Counted from the first letter of the stretch, positions 4,743-51,471 are shown. The stretch is 64,000 nucleotides of DNA from Escherichia phage EC101 (OL310488.1); one strand, 5' to 3'. The notes: generated by a model from the sequence alone, not told the origin. Numbers and translations are program-made.

Positions 4743-4774
4743 GTTTACAAGACTGTTCTTCCGTGGTACTATTA
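4743..4774 (+). promoter_or_regulatory. T4-type early promoter
   Basis: GTTTACA ... GGTACTATTA motif followed by GGAGG SD. Confidence 0.5.
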
Positions 4775-4800
4775 CCCTATCAACTACGGAGGAACAGAAA

Positions 4801-4914
4801 ATGAAAAAGATTGTTAAAGCTATATGGAATGTAGTTATAATACTAATAGTTTTGAGTATATTCCCAATCGTTTTAATGATTGATGTATTAAACGTTTACT
4901 TTGGATTTATGTGA
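4801..4914 (+). CDS. small hydrophobic membrane peptide (37 aa)
   Basis: GGAGGAACAGAAA-ATG; almost entirely hydrophobic (single predicted TM helix). Confidence 0.4.
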   Translation: MKKIVKAIWNVVIILIVLSIFPIVLMIDVLNVYFGFM

Positions 4915-24927: not shown

Positions 24928-25314
24928 ATGGAAATCGGCAAAAAATACGAGTTAAATCCACACCGTATTAAATCTTTCATTGATATTAGTTCATCAAATG
25001 CTAATATGGTCGGCATCATTCAAGAAAATGGTGGTTGGTTTGAAGTTAAATCAATATCAAGTTTAGATGGCTTTGATTATGTAACCGAAATCATTTGTGC
25101 TAATGGTGAAATCTATAATGATGATGGTATGGGTGATGATTATTTTGAACTTAGTGAAGAAGAGTTTTATTGTTTCCGCGAATATAAAGAACCGACTTCT
25201 GAAGAAGATGAAGTCAAAGACAAGGTTTCTGGCGTAACAAAAATTCACTGCATTGTTGACGAAAACAATGTAGATGAAATCATTGAACTTTTGCGAAAAA
25301 CTTTCAAAAAGTAG
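24928..25314 (+). CDS. hypothetical acidic protein (128 aa; alternative start at 24913)
   Basis: GAGGAAAATCAAA-ATG; no recognisable domain. Confidence 0.6.
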   Translation: MEIGKKYELNPHRIKSFIDISSSNANMVGIIQENGGWFEVKSISSLDGFDYVTEIICANGEIYNDDGMGDDYFELSEEEFYCFREYKEPTSEEDEVKDKVSGVTKIHCIVDENNVDEIIELLRKTFKK

Positions 25315-33725: not shown

Positions 33726-35313
<1,588 letters not shown>

Positions 35314-35316
35314 GTT

Positions 35317-35346
35317 GTTTACAAGTCCCTCGTGTTGTGTTATAGT
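35317..35346 (+). promoter_or_regulatory. T4-type early promoter for alc (copy 1 of a 54-bp repeated promoter-leader module)
   Basis: GTTTACAAGTCCCTCGTGTTGTGTTATAGTAG; the 54-bp module is repeated exactly at 51092..51145. Confidence 0.5.
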
Positions 35347-35377
35347 AGTCTTACTGACATAACATGAGGACTTTATG

Positions 35378-35881
35378 ATGGATTTGCAGCTTATTACTAC
35401 TGAAATGGTCGTTGAAGCATACGGTGATACTACAGATGGGATTTCTGTATTCAAAGGAAATCGTCGAGTTGGATATATCACCGATCTTAAGAAAGATTTA
35501 GCTAAGCAAGTCAAGCGGAAAACGACCATTAAAGAATATCGAAATCGTCGTCTTGAGCAAGCCCGTGACATGCTTCCTGATGCGGTTGAGGAGATGAAAG
35601 TCTTTTTAGAAAATCAACTCGCTAAGTATGAGTGTGAAGTATTCATTAATCAGACTCAGCCTAATGTTCATATCAATAGCTGTAAATGCTATATCATCGT
35701 TAATCCTTTGACGGGAAAACATCGTCTTGGAATTAGTAATCCAAATCGTAGTGCATCGGATATGGCAGAAGATGTTGAGGCATGCTTTAAAATTTCTAAA
35801 TCTCCAGCTGAACATCATATTTTAATTAACGGTCTTTCTCAAGACGATATTGTAGAGGTTATTAAAACTTTATGCATGTAA
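35378..35881 (+). CDS. alc: Alc (terminates host transcription on cytosine-containing DNA)
   Basis: 167 aa from the second ATG; sequence MDLQLITTEMVVEAYG... consistent with T4 Alc. Confidence 0.9.
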   Translation: MDLQLITTEMVVEAYGDTTDGISVFKGNRRVGYITDLKKDLAKQVKRKTTIKEYRNRRLEQARDMLPDAVEEMKVFLENQLAKYECEVFINQTQPNVHINSCKCYIIVNPLTGKHRLGISNPNRSASDMAEDVEACFKISKSPAEHHILINGLSQDDIVEVIKTLCM

Positions 35882-36225
35882 GTAATTTTACAGCTGGATT
35901 GCTATTACTTGTAATAGCATTTGGCGGAACATCTATTATTTTAAAAAATAAGGTAGAAAGATTAGAAACATCAGTTACTGAAATTACAAAAACAGCCAAT
36001 GAAAACGCTTTAGCATTAAATAATTTGCGAATTCAGTATAATTATATTGATGCGATGAATAATAAAAATCGTGAGGCAATTGCTGCTATTGAGCGTGAAA
36101 ATGAAAAACTGCGCAAAGATGCAAAGAAGGCGGATGTGGTGGCTTATAAGCCAGGATTGGTTGAAAAACAAATCAACAACTCCTTCAACAAGTTCGCAGA
36201 AGACATCCAGGACCTTTCTAAATGA
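35872..36225 (+). CDS. pseT.3: i-spanin (inner-membrane spanin subunit; T4 PseT.3 equivalent)
   Basis: 117-aa ORF with an N-terminal TM helix and a coiled-coil periplasmic domain; directly followed by a lipoprotein ORF. Confidence 0.75.
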   Translation: MHVSNFTAGLLLLVIAFGGTSIILKNKVERLETSVTEITKTANENALALNNLRIQYNYIDAMNNKNREAIAAIERENEKLRKDAKKADVVAYKPGLVEKQINNSFNKFAEDIQDLSK

Positions 36226-36521
36226 TTAAACTATCGGCAGTAATATTATCTATTGGTCTTCTAGTTGGTTGTTCGACAAAGCCTCTAGAAGTAAAGAAAG
36301 AAACAGTTCATCCCAATTGGCCTGTGCAAATAAAGTCATATGATGAAGCTAAACTATCTTGGCAAGTTAAAGTTATCGATGGTAAAGCTTGGGTCGGTAT
36401 GCCATTTGAAGATTCTCAGGAATTTCGTATTTGGCTTAATGATGTAAAACGATATGTACATGATCAGAAAACTATGATATGTTATTATCGTCAAGAGTTA
36501 AAAGAGGATAAATGCAAATGA
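36222..36521 (+). CDS. pseT.2: o-spanin (outer-membrane lipoprotein spanin subunit; T4 PseT.2 equivalent)
   Basis: 99-aa ORF; signal peptide with lipobox LVGC (MIKLSAVILSIGLLVGCS); ATGA overlap with the i-spanin. Confidence 0.75.
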   Translation: MIKLSAVILSIGLLVGCSTKPLEVKKETVHPNWPVQIKSYDEAKLSWQVKVIDGKAWVGMPFEDSQEFRIWLNDVKRYVHDQKTMICYYRQELKEDKCK

Positions 36522-36744
36522 TTTCATGGCATCAATTTGAGCATCTCAAAGGATTGATTTATGAATCCGAGATGGCTGCAATGATTTATGGACGCCAGAT
36601 TCAGCGATTAGAATCTTTACCTCCAACTAATGATGTTTTATTAGCTCAATCACGTGCTAATCTTAAAAATGAATACCAAAATAAGTGGGGCAAAGCATCT
36701 AAAGACCTGCATGATTATATTCAATCATTGGTTGAGAAAAATAA

Positions 36745-36748
<4 letters not shown>
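36512..36748 (+). CDS. hypothetical protein (78 aa)
   Basis: overlapping start and stop codons within the operon. Confidence 0.6.
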
Positions 36749-37966
<1,218 letters not shown>

Positions 37967-37967
<1 letters not shown>

Positions 37968-38164
37968 TGGCTTGGCACCATGAAACTTGGGCTATTGTTA
38001 TTGTAAATAGCAGTTTAGTTGGTACTAGTAATGGGCAATTTTGTGTATTTACTAGTGAAAATAGAGCATGGGAGGAATGCCTTAAATTAAGAGAAAAGAA
38101 TCCTGATGTTGAACTAGTAGTAAAGAAAACTAAACTGCCTTTACCATGGAAAACGTATGAATAA
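37967..38164 (+). CDS. hypothetical protein (65 aa)
   Basis: ATG overlapping the pseT stop (TAATG); track ORF trimmed. Confidence 0.5.
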
Positions 38165-38357
38165 CCTAGAAAAGATTTATCGTCTTTGTGATAAAATTGA
38201 AAAAGAAAAGAAATATCTATTTTGTCTATGGCCTATTGTTGACGGAAGAGTAGGCCTAGATGTTCTTGATTATGAAACAGAAGACAAAGTAGATGGCGCA
38301 ACTTTTGATAACGCTTTGGATGTTATTGATTGGCTTGAAGAAAATTATGTGAGGTAA
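38157..38357 (+). CDS. hypothetical protein (66 aa)
   Basis: ORF with overlapping start. Confidence 0.55.
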   Translation: MNNLEKIYRLCDKIEKEKKYLFCLWPIVDGRVGLDVLDYETEDKVDGATFDNALDVIDWLEENYVR

Positions 38358-38359
38358 AT

Positions 38360-38635
38360 ATGTTTCCGACTTACTCTAAAATCGTAGAAGTAGTGTTTAG
38401 CCAAATTATCGCTAATAATATGTTTGAAAAACTTGATAACGCAGCTGAGCTTCGAATCCATGCTCAAGTGACTCATGTATTGAACACTTTGCTTCCAGAC
38501 CAGGTGGATTCTGTTGCCATCACGTTGTATCCAGGTTCCGCGCATATCATTGTCGTATTCGGTCTTGATGCTGAGCTAGTCATCAAAGGCGATATTCGCT
38601 TTGAATCACAGACATCAGAATTCAAAGCAATTTAA
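38360..38635 (+). CDS. hypothetical protein (91 aa)
   Basis: GAGG SD. Confidence 0.55.
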   Translation: MFPTYSKIVEVVFSQIIANNMFEKLDNAAELRIHAQVTHVLNTLLPDQVDSVAITLYPGSAHIIVVFGLDAELVIKGDIRFESQTSEFKAI

Positions 38636-38636
38636 A

Positions 38637-38666
38637 GTTTACTTTACGGTAGAGTTGTGATATTAT
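38637..38666 (+). promoter_or_regulatory. T4-type early promoter
   Basis: GTTTAC ... GTGATATTATAG. Confidence 0.5.
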
Positions 38667-38696
38667 AGCTCTACCAAAACAAACGAGGAAATTGAA

Positions 38697-39224
38697 ATGA
38701 GCGAATGGTTTGAAGAAGATAAGGTTTATCGCTTTAAAACTGGGTATAAAGATATTTTTAATGAAACTTGCGGGGCTAATAAACGAATTGCCCAGTTTAT
38801 TGGGGAAAATTCATTTAAAGTAAAAATAGATCCTGCGAAAAATGTTATTAGCATTAAACGCGAAATTGATGATTGTTGGTATAAAGCTGTTGATGTAATG
38901 GGTGAATCCTATAAAGTTAGCCCGTTATTTTCAATTGCTTATATGTTAGAATATTCTTTTTTCGAAGAAGTTCAAAAAGATGATTCTGTAAGTAAATTTG
39001 AAATTAAAACTGATAAAGAAATTAAGTGGAAAGTAGTAGGTATTACTGGTTGTATGTTCTATATCTATGCTCAAACTGATACGAAGGAAGAAGCTAAAAA
39101 GAAAGCTCTAGAATATCTTGAAGAGCATGAAGAAGGCCCGGTAATGATTACCCAAGATGCTGAATTAGTTTCTGTCAAATTAGTTAAAAACGTTGAAAGT
39201 AAGGAGCTGGGATCAACATGCTAA
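38697..39224 (+). CDS. hypothetical protein (175 aa)
   Basis: GAGGAAATTGAA-ATG; no recognisable domain. Confidence 0.65.
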   Translation: MSEWFEEDKVYRFKTGYKDIFNETCGANKRIAQFIGENSFKVKIDPAKNVISIKREIDDCWYKAVDVMGESYKVSPLFSIAYMLEYSFFEEVQKDDSVSKFEIKTDKEIKWKVVGITGCMFYIYAQTDTKEEAKKKALEYLEEHEEGPVMITQDAELVSVKLVKNVESKELGSTC

Positions 39225-39454
39225 GTGAAAAACCAATTACTGTTAAAGAATTCCAAGAAAAAGTTAAACTATTTGCGCAGGAATTAGTAAATAAGGTTTC
39301 TGAACGATTTCCCGAAACATCGGTTCGTGTTATTACCGAAACTCCTCGTTCAGTATTAGTAATTGTGAATCCAGGTGATGGTGACCAAATAACACATCTC
39401 AAATTGGATTTTGATGGATTAGTTGAAGCACAAAGGGTGTATGGCGTACTATGA
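39218..39454 (+). CDS. hypothetical protein (78 aa)
   Basis: ORF with overlapping start. Confidence 0.6.
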   Translation: MLSEKPITVKEFQEKVKLFAQELVNKVSERFPETSVRVITETPRSVLVIVNPGDGDQITHLKLDFDGLVEAQRVYGVL

Positions 39455-39789
39455 TGAATTTAACTGATATAATTGATAATTGTCTTGAAAATGATACTGG
39501 CGATCATAGAGCGCTTGACTCTGAAACAGCAAAGTTCATTAGAATAACTTTAATGAATGATACTTTGGTGAATAGTATTCATCCTTCTGTGTATGATGCT
39601 ATTATTGTGACGAAGTATCCGGTTGAGCTTCACAAAAAGATGGTTGGCGCAATTTTTATTGATAAGAAAAACCGCTTTAAAGATGGGCAGAATATAATTA
39701 GTTCTGTTATTAAAAGTATAACTAAACTTCGTCACGAAATTTATCGTGTTGAAACTGCTAAATCTGCTTATCTGGTGATTATGAAATGA
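39451..39789 (+). CDS. hypothetical protein (112 aa)
   Basis: ATGA overlaps at both ends. Confidence 0.6.
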   Translation: MMNLTDIIDNCLENDTGDHRALDSETAKFIRITLMNDTLVNSIHPSVYDAIIVTKYPVELHKKMVGAIFIDKKNRFKDGQNIISSVIKSITKLRHEIYRVETAKSAYLVIMK

Positions 39790-40367
39790 AAGCGAGTACA
39801 GTACTTCAAATTGCATATTTAGTATCACAAGAATCAAAATGTTGCTCCTGGAAAGTAGGAGCAGTAATTGAAAAGAATGGACGTATTATTTCTACTGGAT
39901 ATAATGGTTCACCTGCAGGTGGTGTGAACTGTTGTGATTATGCTGCTGAGCAAGGTTGGTTGCTGAATAAACCTAAACATACTATCATTCAAGGTCATAA
40001 GCCTGAATGTGTATCGTTTGGTTCAACTGATCGTTTTGTATTGGCGAAAGAACATCGTAGCGCGCACTCTGAATGGTCGTCTAAAAATGAAATTCATGCT
40101 GAACTAAATGCGATTTTGTTTGCTGCACGAAACGGTTCTTCAATTGAAGGTGCTACTATGTATGTAACACTTTCTCCTTGCCCAGATTGTGCAAAAGCAA
40201 TAGCTCAATCTGGAATTAAAAAGCTGGTTTATTGTGAAACATACGATAAAAATAAACCTGGCTGGGATGATATTCTGCGAAATGCAGGTATTGAAGTGTT
40301 TAATGTTCCTAAGAAAAACTTGAATAAGTTAAACTGGGAAAATATCAACGAATTCTGTGGTGAATAA
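39786..40367 (+). CDS. cd: dCMP deaminase
   Basis: 193-aa ORF; zinc-binding motifs HAE...PCxxC (HAELNAILFAA, SPCPDCAKAIA); matches T4 Cd. Confidence 0.95.
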   Translation: MKASTVLQIAYLVSQESKCCSWKVGAVIEKNGRIISTGYNGSPAGGVNCCDYAAEQGWLLNKPKHTIIQGHKPECVSFGSTDRFVLAKEHRSAHSEWSSKNEIHAELNAILFAARNGSSIEGATMYVTLSPCPDCAKAIAQSGIKKLVYCETYDKNKPGWDDILRNAGIEVFNVPKKNLNKLNWENINEFCGE

Positions 40368-40603
40368 TGAAATTTCGTTTGGTACAGCTCACAGCAATTA
40401 GTTCTTATTCTAATGAGAATATTTCATTTGCTGTAGAGTATAAGAAATATTTTTTCTCTAAATGGAAGCAGTATTATAAGTCAGAATGGGTTTGTATTGA
40501 TAGACCATATAGTTGGAAATCTGATTTAGAAAAATGCCAAAAATTACTTTCCACTCTTAAAGAACGTGGAACAACTCATATTAAAACTGTAATAGGTAAA
40601 TAA
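40367..40603 (+). CDS. hypothetical protein (78 aa)
   Basis: ORF with overlapping start and stop. Confidence 0.6.
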   Translation: MKFRLVQLTAISSYSNENISFAVEYKKYFFSKWKQYYKSEWVCIDRPYSWKSDLEKCQKLLSTLKERGTTHIKTVIGK

Positions 40604-40912
40604 ATGAAACTGACGACTGAACAAAAAGTAGCAATTCGTGAAATTTTGAAAACTAAATTGTCCATGGGTGTTTCAAACGTAGTTTTTGAAAAGTCTGACG
40701 GTACTATTCGTGTTATGAAAGGTACTCGCGACGCGGACTTTATGCCAACCATGCAAACTGGCAAATTGACTGAATCTACTCGGAAAGAATCTACTGACAT
40801 GATTCCGGTATTTGATGTTGAGCTTGGTGCATGGCGAGGTTTTTCTATTGACAAATTGATTTCCGTTAATGGTATGAAAGTTGAGCATTTGCTCCAATTT
40901 ATTGGTAAATAA
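40604..40912 (+). CDS. hypothetical protein (102 aa)
   Basis: ORF immediately after the preceding stop. Confidence 0.6.
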   Translation: MKLTTEQKVAIREILKTKLSMGVSNVVFEKSDGTIRVMKGTRDADFMPTMQTGKLTESTRKESTDMIPVFDVELGAWRGFSIDKLISVNGMKVEHLLQFIGK

Positions 40913-40968
40913 ATGCTTTAAGAATTATTTGTTATTATTAATTCATCTGTTAACAAAAAGGAAAAACG

Positions 40969-41304
40969 ATGTCTGAAGTACAACAGCTACCAATTCGTGC
41001 TGTCGGTGAATATGTTATTTTAGTTTCTGAACCTGCACAAGCCGGTGATGAAGAAGTTACAGAATCAGGACTTATTATCGGTAAACGTGTTCAAGGTGAA
41101 GTTCCTGAACTGTGTGTAGTTCACTCTGTCGGTCCTGATGTTCCTGAAGGTTTCTGCGAAGTTGGCGATTTGACTTCTCTTCCAGTTGGTCAAATTCGAA
41201 ATGTTCCGCATCCTTTTGTAGCTCTGGGTCTTAAGCAGCCAAAAGAAATTAAACAAAAATTCGTTACCTGTCACTATAAAGCTATTCCGTGTCTTTATAA
41301 GTGA
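40969..41304 (+). CDS. 31: gp31 co-chaperonin (GroES analogue required for capsid protein folding)
   Basis: 111-aa ORF; sequence [22 protein letters not shown]... matches T4 gp31. Confidence 0.9.
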
Positions 41305-41451
41305 TATAAATAATAATATGAATTGGGTGTCGGAATAATAAGTTAACCGAACAATTCTATGTGGTAGTCTACAACTGAGAGATCTGTCGAAAGAAGATGA
41401 AATTCAGAAGAACGTGACTACCGAGTTTTAATCTCTAACGAGAATTTTTAA

Positions 41452-41700
41452 ATGATTAAACAATTACAACACGCTCTTGAACTGCAACGAAACGCATGGA
41501 ATAATGGTCACGAAAACTATGGCGCATCTATTGATGTTGAAGCCGAAGCTCTTGAAATCCTGCGTTATTTCAAACATCTGAATCCTGCTCAAACTGCATT
41601 AGCTGCTGAGCTTCAGGAAAAAGATGAACTTAAATATGCTAAGCCTTTGGCTTCTGCTGCGCGAAAAGCAGTTCGTCACTTTGTGGTAACATTGAAGTAA
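41452..41700 (+). CDS. rIII: rIII lysis inhibition accessory protein
   Basis: 82-aa ORF; sequence matches T4 RIII as recalled. Confidence 0.9.
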   Translation: MIKQLQHALELQRNAWNNGHENYGASIDVEAEALEILRYFKHLNPAQTALAAELQEKDELKYAKPLASAARKAVRHFVVTLK

Positions 41701-41944
41701 TTTATTGGAGATTCACTGCCTTAGTGTGAGCTAAATCGAGGAGCCGTCGAACTGTCTGATTAATGATTTGCGAATCATTATAGTTTTAAGACCCCGGCAG
41801 TTTTACGGTGTACCTCTTGAATGTGAATGATGACGGGTTTATGGTTATCCTGGTCGTTAAATATCCAAAAACCTATGTTCCCCTTGAGGGCTTGCGCAGG
41901 CAATGCCAATAAGTCCTGCATTTTCATTTAAAAGAGAATTTATA

Positions 41945-42121
41945 ATGGCAAAACAAGCTAAAGCAAAGAAAGCAGTTGAAAAGAAAGTTGGTGATTCTAA
42001 ACGCGCTGGCTACAAGCGTGGGTCGAACTCTCGTATCAATCAAACTGTTGAGAAGATCATGCGCCGAGCACGTGCGGTTCTTCGAGATGATGCTTCTCGT
42101 TTTGGTAAGCAGAAAGCATAA
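41945..42121 (+). CDS. small highly basic protein (58 aa; track ORF extends upstream to 41903)
   Basis: MAKQAKAKKAVEKKVGDSKRAGYKRGS...; Lys/Arg-rich; followed by a strong terminator. Confidence 0.5.
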   Translation: MAKQAKAKKAVEKKVGDSKRAGYKRGSNSRINQTVEKIMRRARAVLRDDASRFGKQKA

Positions 42122-42126
42122 GTTGA

Positions 42127-42155
42127 GGACTCCTTCGGGAGTCCTTTTTTATTTT
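42127..42155 (+). terminator. intrinsic terminator (GGACTCC-TTCG-GGAGTCC followed by T-run)
   Basis: 7-bp stem, UUCG loop, TTTTTTATTTT. Confidence 0.85.
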
Positions 42156-42174
42156 CCAAAGATTGCATAAAGTT

Positions 42175-42207
42175 GTTTACAGTATGGTTCCTTTGTGATA
42201 GTATTAT
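42175..42207 (+). promoter_or_regulatory. T4-type early promoter
   Basis: GTTTAC ... GTGATAGTATTAT. Confidence 0.5.
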
Positions 42208-42231
42208 CTTACACAAACAAAGGAGAATAAA

Positions 42232-42564
42232 ATGAAAACGATTAATCTGAACGCTGCAGTTAAAACTAAATGCTTCAATGGTAAATATGATGAAACTATG
42301 TGGTTCTTAATGGCAGTTGAAGGTGATATTATTGAAGTAGAAACAACAGAAGGTATGGGAACAGATTTCACCTTTACAATTCAAGTTCATAATTTCTTTA
42401 TTGGTTGGATTTATGAATTGAATACAGTAATCGTTGGAAAAATTGAACAAAATGAATTAGGTGAATGGTATTATGTTACAGCTCGCCAACGTGCCGAACG
42501 CTTAATTGAGAAGATGAAAAAAGTTGGTAAACTTGACATGCAGCATTGGAAAGTAGTAAAATAA
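42232..42564 (+). CDS. hypothetical protein (110 aa)
   Basis: AAGGAG SD. Confidence 0.6.
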   Translation: MKTINLNAAVKTKCFNGKYDETMWFLMAVEGDIIEVETTEGMGTDFTFTIQVHNFFIGWIYELNTVIVGKIEQNELGEWYYVTARQRAERLIEKMKKVGKLDMQHWKVVK

Positions 42565-42566
42565 TT

Positions 42567-42595
42567 GTTTACTTTGGTACAGGATATGATATTAT
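42567..42595 (+). promoter_or_regulatory. T4-type early promoter
   Basis: GTTTAC, 17 bp, TATTAT. Confidence 0.5.
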
Positions 42596-42632
42596 ATACC
42601 TGTACCGCAATTAAACATCTTGGAGAATAAAA

Positions 42633-42998
42633 ATGAACTACATCAACTTTGAACGTAAATATGTTTCTAATGGTATTGCAGGTTCTATTGATACTATTTG
42701 CCTTTGGAAACATCAAAATGGATCAGTATGCGAAATTGAGCAGTATATGACTCCTAATTACGTTTATATGCGATTTGAAAACGGTATCACGGTTTCAATC
42801 ACGATGGAAGGTTCCAACTTTAAAATCGCTCTGGATGATGATTTCCGTGAACGCGATTTAGGGACTCATCCTTGCTGGAATGGCGTTAATCGCAAGCTTT
42901 TGGTTAAAACTTGGATTCGTCATATTCTGAGTAACAGAGCTAAACCTGAGCATCTTGAAGCAATCTTTGATGTAGTTCTTAACGAATTTGATATTTAA
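42633..42998 (+). CDS. hypothetical protein (121 aa)
   Basis: GGAGAATAAAA-ATG. Confidence 0.6.
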   Translation: MNYINFERKYVSNGIAGSIDTICLWKHQNGSVCEIEQYMTPNYVYMRFENGITVSITMEGSNFKIALDDDFRERDLGTHPCWNGVNRKLLVKTWIRHILSNRAKPEHLEAIFDVVLNEFDI

Positions 42999-43038
42999 AA
43001 TAAATGAGGGGCTTTGGCCCCTTACTGAGGAAAATGTT

Positions 43039-43326
43039 ATGTTTATGACTACTTATTTTGATACCCGTAAAAACTTCTGCGAAGTAGTTTTCTCAAAGGC
43101 GCCTAAAGACCTTCCTGCACATTTGCAACCTACTAGCGAATCGATTAAAAACTACGTTGATGTGGTTTGTCCTTTAGAGTTTCGTACTGTAAATGGGCGC
43201 GATACTTTAGCTATCACTAAACTCAATCGCGAAATTGACATTGACCCTTCAATTGCGCGTGAAATTAATAGTTCTGATATTAATGGCGGTAATGTTAAAT
43301 CGCACGGTTTTCAGATGAGGTTTTAA
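43039..43326 (+). CDS. hypothetical protein (95 aa)
   Basis: GC hairpin then GAGG SD 8 nt before the ATG; track ORF trimmed. Confidence 0.6.
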   Translation: MFMTTYFDTRKNFCEVVFSKAPKDLPAHLQPTSESIKNYVDVVCPLEFRTVNGRDTLAITKLNREIDIDPSIAREINSSDINGGNVKSHGFQMRF

Positions 43327-43523
43327 TGAAATTCTTTTTAGGTCAAACTGTTGAATTAAAGGGAGTTGGTATACCTGGATTAATTTCTAAGGTTCTACCT
43401 TCGTTTAAATGGAGTGGTATTCAAATAAAAGAGGCTTATATTGTTTCTTGGGTAGATGGAAATGAAGACCTTCGTATGGGCGATGAATTATCTCCTATCT
43501 ACGGATTAAAGGAATTAGTATGA
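43326..43523 (+). CDS. hypothetical protein (65 aa)
   Basis: TAATG overlap. Confidence 0.55.
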   Translation: MKFFLGQTVELKGVGIPGLISKVLPSFKWSGIQIKEAYIVSWVDGNEDLRMGDELSPIYGLKELV

Positions 43524-43726
43524 ATATAATTAATAAGATTTTTGGAATTCAGTACATTAAGGTCACATATAAAGTAACAGATAAAAATCCATATACCGAT
43601 GAACATGAAGAACCACAAATTGAGTCTATTATATTAGAAAAAGGCAGTGACTGGCCAGTTGAATTTCGTCTACCAAACTATGGTCATTGGGCTGATGTTG
43701 AAATTATAAGCATTGAAAATGTCTGA
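43520..43726 (+). CDS. hypothetical protein (68 aa)
   Basis: ATGA overlap. Confidence 0.55.
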   Translation: MNIINKIFGIQYIKVTYKVTDKNPYTDEHEEPQIESIILEKGSDWPVEFRLPNYGHWADVEIISIENV

Positions 43727-44177
43727 GTTAGAGATTAGAAGTAATTTTAGGTGGCCATCATGTGCATTAAGTAATTTCGCCCATTGGCCTTTCGTTATGG
43801 ATGGTATTCAATTTGGAGGTCTTGAAGGATTCCTCCAAGGATGCAAGGTGAAAAACGTTGAACAACAACGTCGTATATTTGGGTTATCCGGGCTTGCCGC
43901 TCAACAAGCTGGAAGGTCTTATGCTAGAGCTCAGGACCGTGGGACCCTCTTCTGGCTTGGAGTTCCATTTTCAAGATACTCCCCGGCGTGGAAAGAATTA
44001 TACACAAATGCATATTTTGAAGCAGCGATTCAAAACAAGGGCTTTCGTGATGCATTACAAGCCTCGAAAGGAAAAGTTTTGAAGCACAGCATGGCTAGTG
44101 GTCTAACAAAAGATGATACAATACTAACCGAAGCTGAATTTATTGATGTGTTAAACCTATTAAGAGACTCTCTATGA
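43713..44177 (+). CDS. NADAR-domain (YbiA-like) protein, putative ADP-ribose processing enzyme
   Basis: 154-aa ORF with LSNFAHWPFVMDG...GLEGFLQGCK motif resembling the NADAR/YbiA signature; position corresponds to the T4 30.x genes. Confidence 0.6.
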   Translation: MKMSELEIRSNFRWPSCALSNFAHWPFVMDGIQFGGLEGFLQGCKVKNVEQQRRIFGLSGLAAQQAGRSYARAQDRGTLFWLGVPFSRYSPAWKELYTNAYFEAAIQNKGFRDALQASKGKVLKHSMASGLTKDDTILTEAEFIDVLNLLRDSL

Positions 44178-45010
44178 AGCCTACTATTTTAACTGATATT
44201 GATGGAGTATGTTTAAGCTGGCAATCAGGTCTTCCTTATTTTGCTCAGAAATATAATCTTCCGTTAGAACATATTTTAAAAATGATCCAGGATGAGAAAT
44301 TTATTTCTCCAGGTAAACTCTTTAATTGTGACGAAGAACTTGGCGTCAAGCTAATTGAAAAATACAATCGTTCAGATTTTATTCGTTACTTGTCTCCATA
44401 TAAAGATGCTCTGTGTGTAATTAACAAATTAAAAGAAGATTATAATTTTGTAGCTGTTACAGCATTGGGTGATTCTATTGACGCTCTGCTGAATCGTCAA
44501 TTTAATTTAAACGCTCTTTTTCCTGGTGCCTTCTCAGAAGTACTGATGTGTGGTCATGATTCTTCAAAAGAAGAGTTGTTTAAAAAGGCAAAAGAGAAAT
44601 ATAACGTGATTTGTTATATTGACGATCTCGCTCACCATTGCGATCATGCGAGTGAAATATTAAATGTTCCTGTTTATTGGATGGCTCGAGGAGAGCGTGA
44701 CAATATTCCAAAAACTGCTCAGCGAGTTTATACATGGAATGATGTAGAAAATAAGCTTTTTTCACCGAAGGAAAATAAAGAAAGTTTTGATAGTGAAAAA
44801 GCTATAAAAGATGTAATTGAAAAGATGATTAAAAACGATTCTTTTCCTTGGAACACTACCTGGAGAACTCCTGGATTTAATCCTTATAATCCATATCATC
44901 CATATCAGACGCATCCGTTTCAGACATGGAACTATATTAAACCCGGTGGCATAGAGTATTTGTATAATAGACCTACTGGTGCTAATAATATTTTCCAAGG
45001 AGCATTCTAA
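44174..45010 (+). CDS. HAD-like hydrolase family protein (278 aa)
   Basis: N-terminal motif ILTDIDGV (DxDG, HAD motif I); synteny with the T4 30.x block. Confidence 0.55.
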   Translation: MKPTILTDIDGVCLSWQSGLPYFAQKYNLPLEHILKMIQDEKFISPGKLFNCDEELGVKLIEKYNRSDFIRYLSPYKDALCVINKLKEDYNFVAVTALGDSIDALLNRQFNLNALFPGAFSEVLMCGHDSSKEELFKKAKEKYNVICYIDDLAHHCDHASEILNVPVYWMARGERDNIPKTAQRVYTWNDVENKLFSPKENKESFDSEKAIKDVIEKMIKNDSFPWNTTWRTPGFNPYNPYHPYQTHPFQTWNYIKPGGIEYLYNRPTGANNIFQGAF

Positions 45011-45279
45011 TGTTTGTTGTTCACACTATTTATGAAAATGAAGGTAATACTACACGTGATTACGGTCACGTAAATCAATTTTTTAGATGCAATCCAGAAT
45101 TCCGAGCTCAAAAAGACGAACGAATTTTTAAAAAATGCGTAGAGCAAGGTTTCATTTACGTCAAGCACTGGATGCAAGGAAATAAAGTTAGAACCACGTA
45201 CCACAGGTCTTTGACTGAGCTTAATGATGAATTGATTTATAATAGAGCTGTAAACCAAACTCTAAAGGATGAACAATGA
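45010..45279 (+). CDS. hypothetical protein (89 aa)
   Basis: TAATG overlap with the upstream gene, ATGA overlap with the downstream gene. Confidence 0.6.
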   Translation: MFVVHTIYENEGNTTRDYGHVNQFFRCNPEFRAQKDERIFKKCVEQGFIYVKHWMQGNKVRTTYHRSLTELNDELIYNRAVNQTLKDEQ

Positions 45280-46739
45280 TTCTTAAAATTCTGAACGAAA
45301 TAGCATCTATTGGTTCAACTAAGCAGAAGCAAGCAATTCTTGAAAAGAATAAAGATAATGAATTGCTTAAACGAGTATATCGTCTGACTTATTCTCGTGG
45401 GTTACAGTATTATATCAAGAAATGGCCTAAACCTGGTATTGCTACCCAGAGTTTTGGAATGCTGACTATTACTGATATGCTTGACTTCATTGAATTTACA
45501 TTAGCTACTCGAAAATTGACCGGAAATGCGGCAATTGAGGAATTAGTAGGTTATATTACTGACGGTAAAAAAGATGATGTTGAAGTTTTGCGTCGAGTGA
45601 TGATGCGAGACCTTGAATGTGGTGCTTCAGTATCTATTGCAAACAAAGTTTGGCCAGGTTTAATTCCTGAACAACCTCAAATGCTCGCAAGTTCTTATGA
45701 TGAAAAAGGCATTAATAAGAATATCAAATTTCCAGCCTTTGCCCAGTTAAAAGCTGATGGAGCTCGGTGCTTTGCCGAAGTCAGAGGTGATGAATTAGAT
45801 GACGTTCGTCTTTTATCACGAGCTGGTAATGAATATCTAGGATTAGATCTTCTTAAGGAAGAATTAATCAAAATGACCGCTGAAGCCCGCCAGATTCATC
45901 CAGAAGGCGTGTTAATTGATGGCGAATTGGTATACCATGAGCAAGTTGAAAAGGAGCCAGAAGGCCTAGATTTTCTTTTTGATGCTTATCCTGAAAACAG
46001 TAAAGCTAAAGAATTCGCCGAAGTAGCTGAATCACGTACTGCATCTAATGGCATCGCCAATAAATCTTTAAAGGGAACCATTTCTGAAAAAGAAGCACAA
46101 TGCATGAAGTTTCAGGTCTGGGATTATGTACCGTTGGTAGAAATATACGGTCTTCCTGCATTTCGTTTGAAATATGATGTACGTTTTTCTAAACTAGAAC
46201 AAATGACATCAGGCTATGATAAAGTAATTTTAATTGAAAACCAGGTAGTAAATAACCTAGACGAAGCCAAGGTAATTTATAAAAAGTATATTGACCAAGG
46301 TCTTGAAGGTATTATTCTCAAAAATATCGATGGATTATGGGAAAATGCTCGTTCAAAAAATCTCTATAAATTTAAAGAAGTAATTGATGTTGATTTAAAA
46401 ATTGTAGGAATTTATCCTCACCGTAAAGACCCTACTAAAGCAGGTGGATTTATTCTTGAGTCAGAGTGTGGAAAAATTAAAGTAAATGCTGGTTCAGGCT
46501 TAAAAGATAAAGCCGGTGTAAAATCGCATGAACTTGACCGTACTCGCATTATGGAAAACCAAAATTATTATATTGGAAAAATTCTAGAGTGCGAATGCAA
46601 CGGTTGGTTAAAATCTGATGGCCGCACTGATTACGTTAAATTATTTCTTCCGATTGCGATTCGTTTGCGTGAAGATAAAACTAAAGCTAATACATTCGAG
46701 GATGTATTTGGTGATTTTCATGAGGTAACTGGTTTATGA
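45276..46739 (+). CDS. 30: ATP-dependent DNA ligase
   Basis: 487-aa ORF; adenylation motif KADGAR (FAQLKADGARCF); matches T4 gp30. Confidence 0.95.
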   Translation: MILKILNEIASIGSTKQKQAILEKNKDNELLKRVYRLTYSRGLQYYIKKWPKPGIATQSFGMLTITDMLDFIEFTLATRKLTGNAAIEELVGYITDGKKDDVEVLRRVMMRDLECGASVSIANKVWPGLIPEQPQMLASSYDEKGINKNIKFPAFAQLKADGARCFAEVRGDELDDVRLLSRAGNEYLGLDLLKEELIKMTAEARQIHPEGVLIDGELVYHEQVEKEPEGLDFLFDAYPENSKAKEFAEVAESRTASNGIANKSLKGTISEKEAQCMKFQVWDYVPLVEIYGLPAFRLKYDVRFSKLEQMTSGYDKVILIENQVVNNLDEAKVIYKKYIDQGLEGIILKNIDGLWENARSKNLYKFKEVIDVDLKIVGIYPHRKDPTKAGGFILESECGKIKVNAGSGLKDKAGVKSHELDRTRIMENQNYYIGKILECECNGWLKSDGRTDYVKLFLPIAIRLREDKTKANTFEDVFGDFHEVTGL

Positions 46740-46924
46740 AAGCTTACTTAGAAACAATTGTCATTGCTCAAAAAGAAGGTGGAGATGTTTCTACTTCTGT
46801 ATCACAAGTCATTCTCGAATTTGTAGATGCATACGCTTATAATAAATTCACAGAAACATTTGATGCCTATGAAAAAGGTCCAAAGTTTGAAATATACCGT
46901 ACTCTCTTACCACTAGATTATTAA
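46736..46924 (+). CDS. hypothetical protein (62 aa)
   Basis: ATGA overlap with the ligase stop. Confidence 0.55.
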   Translation: MKAYLETIVIAQKEGGDVSTSVSQVILEFVDAYAYNKFTETFDAYEKGPKFEIYRTLLPLDY

Positions 46925-46948
46925 AGGCCTTCGGGCCTTTAATTTTAT
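46924..46948 (+). terminator. probable intrinsic terminator (AAAGGCC-TTCG-GGCCTTT followed by AATTTT)
   Basis: 7-bp stem with UUCG loop; weak T-run. Confidence 0.5.
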
Positions 46949-46976
46949 AAATAGAATAAACACTAGAGAGGCTATG

Positions 46977-49031
46977 ATGGAACTTATTACAGAATTATTT
47001 GACGAAGATACTACTCTTCCGATTACAAACTTAAATCCAAAGAAGAAAATACCGCAAATTTTTTCAGTTCATGTTGATGATGCAATTGAACAACCAGGCT
47101 TTCGTTTATGTACCTATACATCTGGAGGTGATACTAATCGCGATTTAAAGATGGGCGATAAAATGATGCATATTGTTCCTTTTACATTAACTGCTAAAGG
47201 TTCAATTGCTAAATTAAAAGGTCTTGGTCCAAGCCCAATTAATTATATCAATTCAGTTTTTACTGTTGCGATGCAAACAATGCGTCAGTATAAAATTGAT
47301 GCCTGTATGCTTCGTATTCTTAAGTCTAAAACCGCTGGTCAAGCTCGACAAATTCAAGTTATTGCTGATAGACTTATCCGTAGTCGTTCAGGTGGCAGAT
47401 ACGTCCTTCTTAAGGAACTCTGGGATTACGATAAAAAGTATGCATATATTCTTATACATCGCAAAAATGTATCACTAGAAGACATTCCGGGAGTTCCGGA
47501 AATTAGTACTGAGCTCTTTACTAAAGTTGAATCGAAGGTCGGTGATGTTTATATCAATAAAGATACTGGAGCTCAAGTAACTAAAAATGAGGCAATTGCA
47601 GCATCTATTGCGCAAGAAAATGATAAACGTTCTGACCAAGCTGTAATCGTTAAAGTTAAAATTTCCCGTAGAGCAATTGCGCAAAGTCAATCATTGGAAT
47701 CTTCTAGATTTGAAACGCCGATGTTTCAAAAATTTGAGGCTTCAGCAGCAGAATTAAATAAACCTGCTGACGCTCCTTTAATTTCTGACGCTAATGAATT
47801 AACTGTTATTTCTACTTCAGGATTTGCATTAGAGAATGCTCTTAGTAGTGTTACAGCTGGAATGGCATTCAGAGAAGCTTCTATAATTCCTGAAGATAAA
47901 GAATCTGATGTTAATGCAGAAATAAAAAATAAAGCTTTAGAAAGATTACGAAAAGAATCTATTACTTCAATAAAAACTTTAGAAACTATTGCTTCTATAG
48001 TTGATGATACTTTAGAAAAATATAAAGGTGCTTGGTTAGAAAGAAACATTAACAAGCATTCGCATTTAAATCAAGATGCTGCGAATGAGTTAGTACAAAA
48101 TTCTTGGAATGCAATAAAAACAAAGATTATTCGAAGAGAATTGCGTGGATATGCTCTTACCGCTGGATGGTCACTACATCCTATAGTCGAAAATAAAGAT
48201 TCATCTAAATACACACCGGCACAAAAACGCGGAATTCGTGAATACGTAAGTTCAGGATATGTAGACATAAATAACGCTCTTTTGGGATTATATAATCCAG
48301 ATGAGCGTACAAGTATTTTGACAGCATCTGATATAGAAAAAGCTATTGATAATTTAGATTCTGCCTTTAAAAATGGTGAACGATTACCAAAAGGTATTAC
48401 TTTGTATCGTTCACAACGAATGTTACCTTCAATATATGAAGCACTGGTAAAAAATCGAGTTTTTTATTTTAGAAACTTTGTGTCAACATCATTATATCCA
48501 AATATTTTTGGTACCTGGATGACTGATTCATCTGTGGGTGTTTTACCAGACGAAAAGCGTTTAAGTGTTTCTATTGATAAAACTGATGAAGGACTAGTAA
48601 ATTCTAGCGATAATTTAGTTGGAATTGGATGGGTTATTACTGGGGCTGATAAAGTCAATGTTGTTTTACCAGGTGGAAGTTTAGCACCTTCAAATGAAAT
48701 GGAAGTCATTTTGCCACGTGGATTAATGGTCAAAGTTAATAAAATAACCGATGCATCTTACAATGATGGAACAGTTAAAACTAACAACAAGCTTATTCAA
48801 GCTGAAGTTATGACCACAGAAGAACTCACCGAATCGGTAATTTATGACGGTGACCGTCTAATGGAAACCGGCGAAGTAGTTGCAATGACAGGTGATATTG
48901 AAATAGAAGACAGAGTTGACTTTGCATCATTTGTTTCATCAAACGTTAAACAGAAAGTAGAATCATCTCTTGGAATTATTGCGTCTTGTATAGATATTGC
49001 AAACATGCCTTACAAGTTCGTTCAAGGATAA
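46977..49031 (+). CDS. alt: Alt ADP-ribosyltransferase (virion-packaged; modifies host RNA polymerase alpha subunit)
   Basis: 684 aa from the ATG with GAGAGG SD; sequence matches T4 Alt as recalled; C-terminal R-S-E ADP-ribosyltransferase motifs (LYRSQ, FVSTSL, EVILPRG). Confidence 0.9.
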   Translation: MELITELFDEDTTLPITNLNPKKKIPQIFSVHVDDAIEQPGFRLCTYTSGGDTNRDLKMGDKMMHIVPFTLTAKGSIAKLKGLGPSPINYINSVFTVAMQTMRQYKIDACMLRILKSKTAGQARQIQVIADRLIRSRSGGRYVLLKELWDYDKKYAYILIHRKNVSLEDIPGVPEISTELFTKVESKVGDVYINKDTGAQVTKNEAIAASIAQENDKRSDQAVIVKVKISRRAIAQSQSLESSRFETPMFQKFEASAAELNKPADAPLISDANELTVISTSGFALENALSSVTAGMAFREASIIPEDKESDVNAEIKNKALERLRKESITSIKTLETIASIVDDTLEKYKGAWLERNINKHSHLNQDAANELVQNSWNAIKTKIIRRELRGYALTAGWSLHPIVENKDSSKYTPAQKRGIREYVSSGYVDINNALLGLYNPDERTSILTASDIEKAIDNLDSAFKNGERLPKGITLYRSQRMLPSIYEALVKNRVFYFRNFVSTSLYPNIFGTWMTDSSVGVLPDEKRLSVSIDKTDEGLVNSSDNLVGIGWVITGADKVNVVLPGGSLAPSNEMEVILPRGLMVKVNKITDASYNDGTVKTNNKLIQAEVMTTEELTESVIYDGDRLMETGEVVAMTGDIEIEDRVDFASFVSSNVKQKVESSLGIIASCIDIANMPYKFVQG

Positions 49032-49034
49032 ATC

Positions 49035-51092
49035 ATGGAACTTATTACAGAATTATTTGACGGCGCTTCGGCGCCGGTTGTTAACTTAAATCCTAAGCAT
49101 AAAATACCACAAATTTTTGCTATTCAAGCCGGCGAAGAAAGCGTGCTTCCTGGATTTAGATTTTGTACATATACCTCTGGTGGTGATACGAATAAAAACG
49201 TTAAGCCAGGCGATAAAATGATGCATATCGTAATGATAGGTGTTAATGAGAAACTATCATTAGTTAAGCTTAAAAACTTGGGTGGAAATCCAATTGGTGT
49301 CATTAATGCCGTTTTTGATACTGCTCTTCAAACAATGAAACAGTATAAAATCGACGCATGCCTATTCCGCGTACTAAAAAGTAAAACAAATGGCGCAGCT
49401 CGTCAAATGCAAGTTATTGCTGACCGTTTAGTACGTACTAAAGGAGCAGGTCGATATGTTCTTTTAAAGGAAATCTGGGACTATGATAAGAAATATGCAT
49501 ATATTATGGTTTACCGTAAAAATGCCAATTTAGAAGACATTCCAGGTGTACCTCCTATTTCAACTGAGTTATTCACAAAAGTTGAATCAAAGGTTGGTGA
49601 TGTTTATGTAGATGTTAAAACAGGTAATGCTGTTCCTAAAGCTGTTGCTGTTGCTGCTTCTATTGCTTTAGAAAATGATAAGCGCACGGACCAAGCTGTT
49701 ATTCAGAAAACTAAAATTAGTCGTCGATTAGCAGCACAAGCTCAATATTCTACTGTTGATGCTTCACTTCAGGGTGATAGCTTCGCTGCTAAGAAATATC
49801 AAGAGTTTGAATCTAAAGTTCCGGTATATAAAGCAGAAGGTCCGATGAACTCTGGCGTTATCCAGATTGGTTCAAACTTCAGCAAAGGAGCTATCGGTGG
49901 TATGAGAAGTGCTTCTCGTTTTAAATCTAACGATTATGAACTAGAAAGCTTCCGAAATCATATTGCATTGGCCCATGCACGTTTACGTGATCCATCTATC
50001 AAGTTGCAGAGCGATATAACATATCAAGGTTCTCAAGAATATTTAAAGAATAAAGAATTCTTTGATTATAAAACTGATAAAATTTTAAGCGATCTTGCTG
50101 ACATTAATATTTCTAATAGCTTTGATGTTATTAAGAAAATTATTAATGATTTAGTTAAAGGTTCTAAAACCACACCAGATGAAAAGACAGCTATTATTCA
50201 ATTTGTCATGAATGGCATTTATAAATTGATTAATGAATCTGCTGCCCAGGCATATGAATACGCAAGCACCGAAGTAGCTCCAAAAGGACTGACTCAGGCT
50301 GAATCTGATGTAATTGAAGATTATTGTGCAGATTCATATGTTGAAATGAACTCGTTCCTTTTGGGTAAACCAGATTCTACCCGTGAAGAATATATGGAAC
50401 GAGCTATTAAGCACATCGAGACGTTGGATTCTGCATTCGCTAAAGGTTCAGTTCTTCCTCCAGGAACTACGCTTTATCGTGGACAAGAAGTTACCTTTAA
50501 AACTTTGCGTCATAACATTGAAAACAAAATGTTCTATTTCAAGAACTTCGTATCCACATCGCTTAAACCAAATATATTCGGTGAGCATGGTAAAAACTAT
50601 ATGGCTCTAGATGATTCTGGCGCAGTATTTTCTGGCGAAGGAGAAGGTTCCGTTGATGCAGAAGATTTGATGCATATGGGTAGTCATTCTACATATGCTA
50701 ATGAAGATGCTGAAACTAGCGTGGGTATGGTAATTAAAGGAGCTGAGCGAATCAAAGTTATCGTTCCAGGTCATTTATCAGGATTTCCATCAGAAGCTGA
50801 AGTTATTCTACCACGTGGAATTTTACTGAAGATTAATAAAGTAAGTACTTACTTTATGAAAGAAACTGCTTATAACAAGTATCTAATCGAAGGTACAATC
50901 GTTCCTCCTTCTGAACAATTAGAAGAATCAGTATATGATGGAGACCATCTAATGGAAACTGGTGAAGTTCGTCCAATGGCTGGATTTAATCAATTCCTTG
51001 TAGAAGAATCAAAAGAAGAGGAAAATGAAGTTTCTCAAATCTTAGCTTCTTTGGTTAACATCAACGGAATGTCTAAAAAGTTCAAAATGTAG
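49035..51092 (+). CDS. Alt-like ADP-ribosyltransferase paralog (second copy, divergent central region)
   Basis: 685-aa ORF 3 nt after alt; N-terminal about 210 aa and C-terminal ART core (LYRGQ, FVSTSL, EVILPRG) are clearly homologous to Alt; the middle is diverged. Confidence 0.85.
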   Translation: MELITELFDGASAPVVNLNPKHKIPQIFAIQAGEESVLPGFRFCTYTSGGDTNKNVKPGDKMMHIVMIGVNEKLSLVKLKNLGGNPIGVINAVFDTALQTMKQYKIDACLFRVLKSKTNGAARQMQVIADRLVRTKGAGRYVLLKEIWDYDKKYAYIMVYRKNANLEDIPGVPPISTELFTKVESKVGDVYVDVKTGNAVPKAVAVAASIALENDKRTDQAVIQKTKISRRLAAQAQYSTVDASLQGDSFAAKKYQEFESKVPVYKAEGPMNSGVIQIGSNFSKGAIGGMRSASRFKSNDYELESFRNHIALAHARLRDPSIKLQSDITYQGSQEYLKNKEFFDYKTDKILSDLADINISNSFDVIKKIINDLVKGSKTTPDEKTAIIQFVMNGIYKLINESAAQAYEYASTEVAPKGLTQAESDVIEDYCADSYVEMNSFLLGKPDSTREEYMERAIKHIETLDSAFAKGSVLPPGTTLYRGQEVTFKTLRHNIENKMFYFKNFVSTSLKPNIFGEHGKNYMALDDSGAVFSGEGEGSVDAEDLMHMGSHSTYANEDAETSVGMVIKGAERIKVIVPGHLSGFPSEAEVILPRGILLKINKVSTYFMKETAYNKYLIEGTIVPPSEQLEESVYDGDHLMETGEVRPMAGFNQFLVEESKEEENEVSQILASLVNINGMSKKFKM

Positions 51093-51121
51093 TTTACAAG
51101 TCCCTCGTGTTGTGTTATAGT
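51092..51121 (+). promoter_or_regulatory. T4-type early promoter (copy 2 of the 54-bp repeated promoter-leader module)
   Basis: identical to 35317..35370 over 54 bp. Confidence 0.5.
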
Positions 51122-51152
51122 AGTCTTACTGACATAACATGAGGAACACAAA

Positions 51153-51443
51153 ATGAAATCTTCTTTACGCTTTTTAGGCCAAGAGCTCGTCGTTGAAGGC
51201 GTTATTCCTGCTGATAATGCTTTTAATGAAGCAGTTTACGATGAATTTATTAAAATTTTTGGAACAGATAAAAAGTTCGGAATTTTTCCTTCTGAAAATT
51301 TTTCAAAGCCAGAACAGACTGAAAGTATTTTTCAGGGTGTAGTAACAGGTAAATTTGAGTCAGAAGCTCCGGTAAAAATTGAAGTTTATATTGAAGACAG
51401 TTTAGTTGCTTCAGTTTCTGCTTTCATTTCATTCCGTAAATAA
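51153..51443 (+). CDS. hypothetical protein (96 aa)
   Basis: GAGGAACACAAA-ATG downstream of the repeated promoter. Confidence 0.6.
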   Translation: MKSSLRFLGQELVVEGVIPADNAFNEAVYDEFIKIFGTDKKFGIFPSENFSKPEQTESIFQGVVTGKFESEAPVKIEVYIEDSLVASVSAFISFRK

Positions 51444-51449
51444 AAATAT

Positions 51450-51467
51450 GGGGACCGAAAGGTCCCC
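51450..51467. terminator. bidirectional terminator hairpin (GGGGACC-GAAA-GGTCCCC) between convergent genes
   Basis: 7-bp GC stem flanked by A-run upstream and T-rich downstream; sits between the plus-strand 51153 ORF and minus-strand gene 54. Confidence 0.7.
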
Positions 51468-51471
51468 ATTG

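Follow-up and report, generated by a model that had tools for sequence, protein, structure and literature searches.

Why should two unrelated genes of a T4-like phage be preceded by the same 54 nucleotides? The question is raised by a 64,000-nucleotide stretch of the genome of Escherichia phage EC101 (OL310488.1), called the window below, in which the sequence GTTTACAAGTCCCTCGTGTTGTGTTATAGTAGTCTTACTGACATAACATGAGGA occurs exactly twice, at 35317–35370 (copy 1) and at 51092–51145 (copy 2), both times on the + strand and without a mismatch. A first-pass annotation, made from the sequence alone, had pointed out this direct repeat, and self-comparison of the window bears it out for both copies. Copy 1 occupies the gap between the stop codon of the reading frame containing rnlA and the ATG of alc (35375), and copy 2 the interval from the stop codon of the second of two alt paralogues to the ATG (51153) of the 96-aa reading frame alt.-3, so that at both sites the unit has the upstream stop codon on its 5′ side and the start codon of the next gene on its 3′ side. 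It spans exactly the sequence from the −35 element of a promoter to the Shine-Dalgarno (SD) sequence of the downstream gene. The answer that we favour, with moderate confidence, is that one regulatory cassette is present twice, consisting of an early promoter and a hairpin that masks the SD, and that an alc-type module was copied to alt.-3 and has since exchanged sequence with its source by gene conversion.

In 100 dinucleotide shuffles of the window the expectation for a repeat of 54 nt was zero. The repeat reaches 57 nt if one mismatch is allowed (family D8), and the flanks farther out are unrelated. The window belongs to the genus Tequatrovirus, with 97–99.9% identity to RB27, PYPS2T, T4 and others, and its + strand corresponds to the minus strand of T4. 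Both copies are found in T4 itself (NC_000866), the one before alc being identical to that in EC101 and the one before alt.-3, which overlaps the end of alt.-2, carrying the substitution G40A. The repeat is found throughout the genus, and the 54-mer matches 448 phage records at 740 places; where a record gives a single megablast match, the cause is often a central mismatch (for example T27C) that abolishes the 28-nt seed, rather than a missing copy. A scan of IMG/VR for the exact pattern returned 7 loci only, too few for a census.

The promoter and the predicted hairpin

The promoter of copy 1 (35318–35346, + strand) consists of the −35 element TTTACA at 35318–35323, a 17-nt spacer, a TG and the −10 element TATAGT at 35341–35346 (10/12 match), and that of copy 2 (51093–51121, + strand) has the same elements at 51093–51098 and 51116–51121. 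The −10 element corresponds to repeat positions 25–30, and the usual distance from −10 to +1 would place the start of transcription near repeat position 37, that is at about 35353 and 51128. A −35 region GTTTACA followed by a 17-nt spacer, TGn and the −10 element is also the arrangement of the T4 early (‘uber’) promoters, or Pe class (Hinton 2010, PMC2988021), from which the cassette differs in having TATAGT rather than TATAAT; in some genomes, the −10 reads TATAAT in both copies. By its sequence the cassette promoter is thus a T4 early promoter, and the claim that each copy joins such a promoter to the GAGGA SD of an unrelated gene (35366–35370 for alc, 51141–51145 for alt.-3, both on the + strand) holds for both sites. 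The repeated unit does not include the A/T-rich UP region, which is not the same at the two sites. Both alc and alt.-3 of T4 belong to the early RNA and the early protein class (PMC9697503 supplement). Neither a mapped 5′ end nor a named T4 promoter (Pe136/Pe123 names) for either site was found in the literature, which likewise yielded no paper on gene 63/alc/pseT promoters and nothing on the 54-mer sequence itself, and the GenBank annotation of AF158101 and NC_000866 has no promoter feature at these sites. The first-pass annotation had also concluded that the two genes have an identical 5′ UTR. The leader is indeed shared, but it amounts to only about 18 nt from the predicted start and is essentially unstructured, with predicted folding energies of −3.5 to −4.8 kcal/mol and z near 0.

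The sense RNA of the entire 54-mer, on the other hand, is predicted to form an 18-bp hairpin of −22 kcal/mol (z −5.4), and none of 200 shuffled sequences was as stable. Repeat positions 12–25 (CCUCGUGUUGUGUU) pair with positions 40–53 (GACAUAACAUGAGG), with an additional apical stem of four base pairs, AGUA/UACU. On the + strand of the window, the hairpin of copy 1 covers 35328–35369 (left arm 35328–35341, apical stem 35344–35347/35351–35354, right arm 35356–35369) and that of copy 2 covers 51103–51144 (left arm 51103–51116, right arm 51131–51144). It overlaps the spacer, the −10 element and the leader, the −10 sitting in the left arm and the internal loop. The hairpin is retained at both sites in context folds of 94 and 144 nt, with z of −4.25 and −1.9 for copy 2 and with the stem of copy 1 lengthened by AAGUCC/GGACUU. 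In every one of these in silico folds the GAGG of the SD is paired to the CCUC of the promoter spacer. The antisense strand folds to only −12.8 kcal/mol and the sense hairpin contains three G·U pairs, which indicates a role at the level of RNA. No Rfam family matched between 34000 and 53000 of the window.

The near-palindrome TGTTAT...ATAACA, suggested in the first-pass annotation as a possible regulatory hairpin, forms the core of this stem. Its left arm, however, lies upstream of the predicted start and outside the promoter's own 5′ UTR, and for this reason a hairpin acting within the 5′ UTR of the promoter's own transcript was rejected. Since the predicted start falls inside the hairpin, within its loop and right arm, mRNAs initiated at the promoter would lack the left arm.

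We propose that the cassette makes use of this arrangement. A polymerase that starts at the cassette promoter, inside the hairpin, would produce an mRNA without the left arm and with the SD free, and Alc and Alt.-3 would be made early from such mRNAs. Transcripts that read through from upstream would hold both arms and fold, and their SD would be masked. The sources of read-through would be transcripts of the rnlA operon at copy 1 and, at copy 2, late alt transcripts from the motif TATAAATA at 46946; a terminator scan found no terminator-like site between rnlA and alc or between alt and alt.-3. Alt is a protein packaged in the phage head (PMC2988021). Translation of alc and alt.-3 would thereby be tied to initiation at the early promoter. 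This makes a testable prediction of how T4-like phages confine to the early period both Alc, which shuts off host transcription, and Alt.-3, whose mutants escape the CmdTAC defence.

Two known systems resemble the cassette in part. The first is that of the promoter-early stem-loop cassettes (PeSLs) of T4-type phages (Arbiol et al. 2010, PMC2839356; Comeau et al. 2014, PMC4122927), which likewise are intergenic, following an upstream stop codon with a sigma-70-type early promoter and then an SD and start codon. A stem-loop that overlaps the −10, as the 18-bp hairpin does here, defines one of the described subclasses, and the cassette promoter fits the PST/T4 consensus TTTACW-N17-TAYWAT (PMC4122927). 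PeSL copies also recombine with each other, and exchange between the alc and alt.-3 cassettes is supported by the comparisons given below. In its promoter, overlapping stem-loop, SD with start codon and intergenic position the cassette conforms to the structural definition of a PeSL. Two further early promoters on the + strand of the window lie in hairpins in which the SD is paired to the spacer, at 4743–4803 (−22.7 kcal/mol, z −5.8, SD fully paired) and at 42175–42234; the structural fit together with the same design at these two sites places the cassette in a known kind. The differences lie in the stem and in the setting. Published PeSL stem-loops are terminators or attenuators, typically with stems made of G-runs and C-runs, whereas the stem of the cassette is AU/GU-rich, is followed by no U-tract and pairs spacer to SD; SD pairing and translation are not discussed in the PeSL papers (PMC2839356, PMC4122927). 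PeSLs flank small ORFans in a hyperplastic region and their recombination results in insertion or deletion, whereas here the copies are 15.8 kb apart, flank essential genes and appear to have undergone conversion.

The second system comprises the T4 genes e (lysozyme), soc, 49 and I-TevI, whose ribosome-binding sites are sequestered by hairpins with an internal promoter (PMC3014915). In these genes, as is predicted for the cassette, long transcripts have the SD buried, short ones without the inhibitory arm arise from a promoter in the region of the 5′ arm, and the design is kept among relatives, as it is at alc. The internal promoter is a late one (TATAAATA) in those cases and the hairpin silences early and middle read-through; in the cassette the internal promoter is of the early sigma-70 type, so that the hairpin would silence later transcripts or those initiated upstream. 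Neither alc nor alt.-3 is among the listed cases (PMC3014915), and the cassette fold described here is an in silico one. The less familiar aspects of the present case are the predicted masking of an SD by a hairpin embedded in an early promoter, and the transplantation of a module between two genes followed by conversion.

SD pairing at alc in other genera and the function of the stem-loop

The design can be followed upstream of alc beyond Tequatrovirus. The comparison drew on 39 IMG/VR loci and on GenBank genomes belonging to other genera, with 34 unique alc-upstream sequences. A promoter-embedded hairpin that includes the SD is found in Karam-, Moon-, Jiaoda-, Dhaka- and Marfavirus and in several other lineages, with at least nine different stem sequences. 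In the usual layout the spacer opens, immediately after GTTTACA, with a left arm that resembles an anti-SD; TGn, the −10 and a loop come next, and the SD itself serves as the right arm. From one lineage to another the stems are completely different: Karam- and Moonvirus have UCUCCAUUUGGUU/AACCAAAUGGAGA, Jiaodavirus has UCCUCAUCAG/CUGAUGAGGA and Dhakavirus UCUCCUCAU/AUGAGGAGA, and further versions are CCUCUCGUUUUUG/CAAAAACGAGAGG and CCUCGUUUGUU/AACAAACGAGG. A single consensus structure on a MAFFT alignment of the leaders was dropped, as the arms are out of register between genera, and self versus non-self duplex energies were compared by permutation instead. Spacers paired with their own SD region gave a mean of −14.0 kcal/mol against −7.8 kcal/mol for permuted partners, and in 20,000 permutations the observed value was never attained; the predicted hairpin is in this sense conserved by covariation. 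Of the stem variants seen in Tequatrovirus, C15T, G16A and G40A preserve pairing and G40T and C12A break terminal pairs. We propose that the combination of hairpin and promoter is ancestral at alc.

Not everything favours SD masking. The start site is predicted from the sequence, as is the masking effect, and the stem-loops of RB49-type cassettes were found by the PeSL authors to have terminator or attenuator activity (PMC2839356). SD pairing at alc is missing in Mosigvirus and at four loci (L063–L065 and L067); in three further lineages (L045, L050 and L062) a hairpin surrounds the −10 and the SD stays unpaired, and the region upstream of alc is arranged differently in Gaprivervirus. Given the lineages in which the SD is unpaired or free, masking cannot be the sole function of such stem-loops.

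The most serious competing explanation is that the stem-loop acts on transcription or on RNA stability rather than on translation, by attenuating or terminating rnlA or alt transcripts or by protecting 3′ ends. This would agree with the original view of a PeSL as a promoter and a terminator in one cassette that insulates neighbouring units, and with the finding that the stem-loops of RB49 and phi1 PeSLs lowered lacZ expression in the manner of a strong terminator (PMC2839356). The free SD of the three lineages just named (L045, L050 and L062) also fits it, as do three early-type promoters of the window (at 25314, 38637 and 42567, all on the + strand) in which a hairpin surrounds the −10 and leaves the SD free. 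However, neither in EC101 nor in the other genera is the hairpin followed by a U-tract, its stem in EC101 is rich in AU and GU, and it was passed over by the terminator scan, which did find nearby true terminators such as that at 51448–51469; on these sequence features the cassette hairpin is not a canonical terminator. A terminator would moreover have no need of what most lineages share, namely a right arm coinciding precisely with the SD and a left arm that carries the anti-SD-like CCUC or UCUCC. We therefore regard an action on transcription or stability in place of translation as rather unlikely, bearing in mind that masking and attenuation are not mutually exclusive.

Probable exchange between the two copies

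In the favoured reading, an SD-masking cassette was copied from alc to alt.-3. The early promoter before alt.-3 in Dhaka-, Marfa-, Karam-, Moon-, Mosig- and Gaprivervirus is an ordinary one, unlike the alc module of the same genome; its spacer stem is of the CACCACAAGGAYGTGG type, and the SD is left unpaired. Among the genera sampled, an alc-type module stands before alt.-3 only in Tequatrovirus. Read most economically, these sequences mean that in the Tequatrovirus lineage a copy of the module reached alt.-3 and replaced the ordinary promoter. At its 5′ end the repeat matches TAGTTTACAA(G) and at its 3′ end AACATGAGGA, motifs that the two promoters have in common in other genera. These shared motifs would explain the sharp boundaries of the repeat, and the exchange was probably bounded by them as pre-existing patches. 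A second, independent and partial exchange in the opposite direction, from alt.-3 to alc, is seen by sequence comparison in a Dhakavirus-like contig (IMGVR 2706795356; loci L051 and L074), in which the alc and alt.-3 leaders share an identical stretch of 30 nt, ACCTTACACAAACATGAGGAGAACATTATG, that is absent from other Dhakavirus alc leaders.

Both copies were read in 14 genomes. They are identical in seven of these, and differ by 1 nt in three, by 2 nt in one and by 4–5 nt in three. Three kinds of non-reference haplotype occur in both copies of the same genome: G29A with G32A (PP01 and G28), G32A with C34A (MLP2), and G16A (Ac3). Permutation of partners among 13 of the genomes, RB27 having been added later, gave P of about 1e-4 for the shared variants, or 8e-4 without G28. 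The pattern fits intermittent ectopic gene conversion between copies 13–16 kb apart. Recombination in T4 needs only small patches of homology, below 50 bp (Singer et al. 1982, as cited in PMC2839356), and this short requirement, together with the recombination-driven replication of T4, makes such conversion plausible.

Concerted evolution of dispersed repeats by ectopic gene conversion is a general phenomenon, and the cassette resembles it in having rare variants that are common to both copies within a genome and differ between genomes. It departs from the general case in that the tract is only 54 nt long, the host of the repeat is a lytic phage and homogenisation is incomplete. The case is thus one of a lytic phage in which a whole promoter and leader module appears to have passed from one gene to an unrelated one, conversion having since kept the two copies alike. 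Several points qualify this history. The right arm ends in AACATGAGGA, which is typical of alt.-3 leaders elsewhere, so that the Tequatrovirus module may be chimeric, and it is for the left arm and the −10 part alone that these sequences establish which way the copying went. Copies that differ by 1–5 nt in seven of the 14 genomes imply that homogenisation is intermittent, and the sample is small, with genomes picked in part because both copies were non-reference.

Taken further, SD-masking hairpins embedded in early promoters could be a general gate in T-even phages that responds to the origin of a transcript, is portable by ectopic conversion and re-times the translation of the recipient gene; we offer this wider proposal tentatively, as one that may well not hold. 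If it does, a gated gene would be translated only from mRNAs of its own early promoter and be silent on middle and late read-through transcripts, and gates would have moved from alc to alt.-3 in Tequatrovirus and, in a Dhakavirus lineage, in the reverse direction. Such a gate would mirror the lysozyme (e) paradigm, and would give PeSL stem-loops a role in translation that was not envisaged by those who described them.

In vB_EcoM-G28 (NC_054916; L007, 4135–4539), a tandem duplication of 351 bp that includes the 3′ end of rnlA, the cassette and the 5′ part of alc gives rise to a third cassette copy and a truncated alc reading frame.

A different view of the locus takes the repeat to be chiefly a recombination substrate, exchange between the copies deleting the 15.8-kb block from alc to alt, excising it as a circle or duplicating it, and so driving rearrangement. 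The first-pass annotation had suggested that the repeats could drive deletion of the block. The short homology needed for T4 recombination and the evident conversion between the two copies are in keeping with this, as is the formation of mini-circles by PeSL pairs in RB49 and phi1 (PMC2839356). Chimeric queries for the deletion junction (rnlA-repeat-alt.-3) and for the reciprocal junction (alt-repeat-alc) had, however, no contiguous match in 499 related records, and no insertion or deletion bounded by two cassettes was found there, the cassettes flanking conserved essential genes. The block carries gene 31 (40969–41304, + strand; GroES-like co-chaperonin, Cpn10 by Pfam and the T4 map) and gene 30 (45276–46739, + strand; ATP-dependent DNA ligase, DNA_ligase_A_M by Pfam and the T4 map), both of them essential in established T4 genetics, and by our estimate a duplication of 15.8 kb would exceed a headful. 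The suggestion of repeat-driven deletion is thus not borne out, and a role mainly in rearrangement appears improbable.

The sole record without the block is PP500713.1, described as a complete genome of 152,184 bp, which starts with the 54-mer followed by alt.-3 and ends with rnlA followed by the 54-mer. A short-read assembler yields such output from a contig with identical ends, and most likely the record was falsely circularised on the repeat and does not represent a viable deletion. Conversion between the copies and this one GenBank record are the effects of the repeat homology that can be seen; an exact 54-bp repeat can falsely circularise short-read assemblies and in this instance has probably left a deposited genome without 16 kb that include the ligase gene. 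MZ375356.1, a T4 record of 151.8 kb, was considered as a deletion between the repeats and rejected, as it is an engineered or mutant clone in which the block is intact.

Convergence of two strong early promoters held to one consensus is refuted and retains hardly any probability. T4 early promoters do have an extended consensus beyond the −35 and −10 (PMC2988021), and other early promoters of the window resemble one another (families D2 and D3), but these are 60–80% alike and not identical at 54 of 54 positions, as are the two copies, which agree also at spacer and leader positions outside any consensus. The clear difference between the alc and alt.-3 promoters within genomes of the six other genera and the rare variants common to both copies within genomes speak against it as well. 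An assembly artefact, one sequence wrongly placed twice, which the first-pass annotation had raised as a doubt and for which only the general risk that repeats bring can be cited, is ruled out to the point of having virtually no probability left, since the T4 reference and hundreds of independently sequenced genomes have both copies in the same two contexts.

Neighbouring genes and other repeats of the window

The reading frame upstream of copy 1, at 34153–35313 on the + strand, contains rnlA (RNA ligase 1; Pfam T4 RNA ligase 1), and its transcripts would read into the cassette. It is followed by alc, the inhibitor of host transcription, at 35375–35881 on the + strand (PF17527 ALC, E 2.5e-92, and T4 annotation). 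At the other end of the block, which the first-pass annotation had described as running from alc to alt with an unnamed 96-aa reading frame downstream, there are two tandem alt paralogues (46974–49031 and 49035–51092, together 46974–51092, + strand), both with the ADP-ribosyltransferase domain PF03496, and the frame downstream is alt.-3 (51153–51443, + strand; DUF5498, PF17602, E 5e-64, and T4 annotation). The alt region is variable, with one or two alt copies. Both paralogues of EC101 are full-length and 72–78% identical in stretches (families D5, D12 and D19); T4 retains just the remnants alt.-1 and alt.-2 of the second copy.

About 20 nt before the first alt gene, a GC hairpin at 46921–46944 is followed by the late-promoter motif TATAAATA at 46946–46953, both on the + strand. 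The homologous site in phage G28 has an annotated terminator, and the hairpin of the window belongs to a four-member family, GGGCTTCGGCCC/GGCCTTCGGGCC (D7). The alt.-3 unit is closed by a bidirectional terminator-like hairpin at 51448–51469, a perfect stem of 9 bp with 6 GC that can be read on both strands and has T-runs on either side; it sits between the convergent genes alt.-3 and 54.

Two further repeat families lie elsewhere in the window. Three tandem copies of about 300 nt, with a period of 288 nt and 76–79% identity (family D1), occupy 62514–63389 and presumably encode a repeated protein domain. At 18862–19838, a 68-nt unit occurs four times with irregular spacing and 65–72% identity (family D4), and is probably an internal repeat in a coding region.

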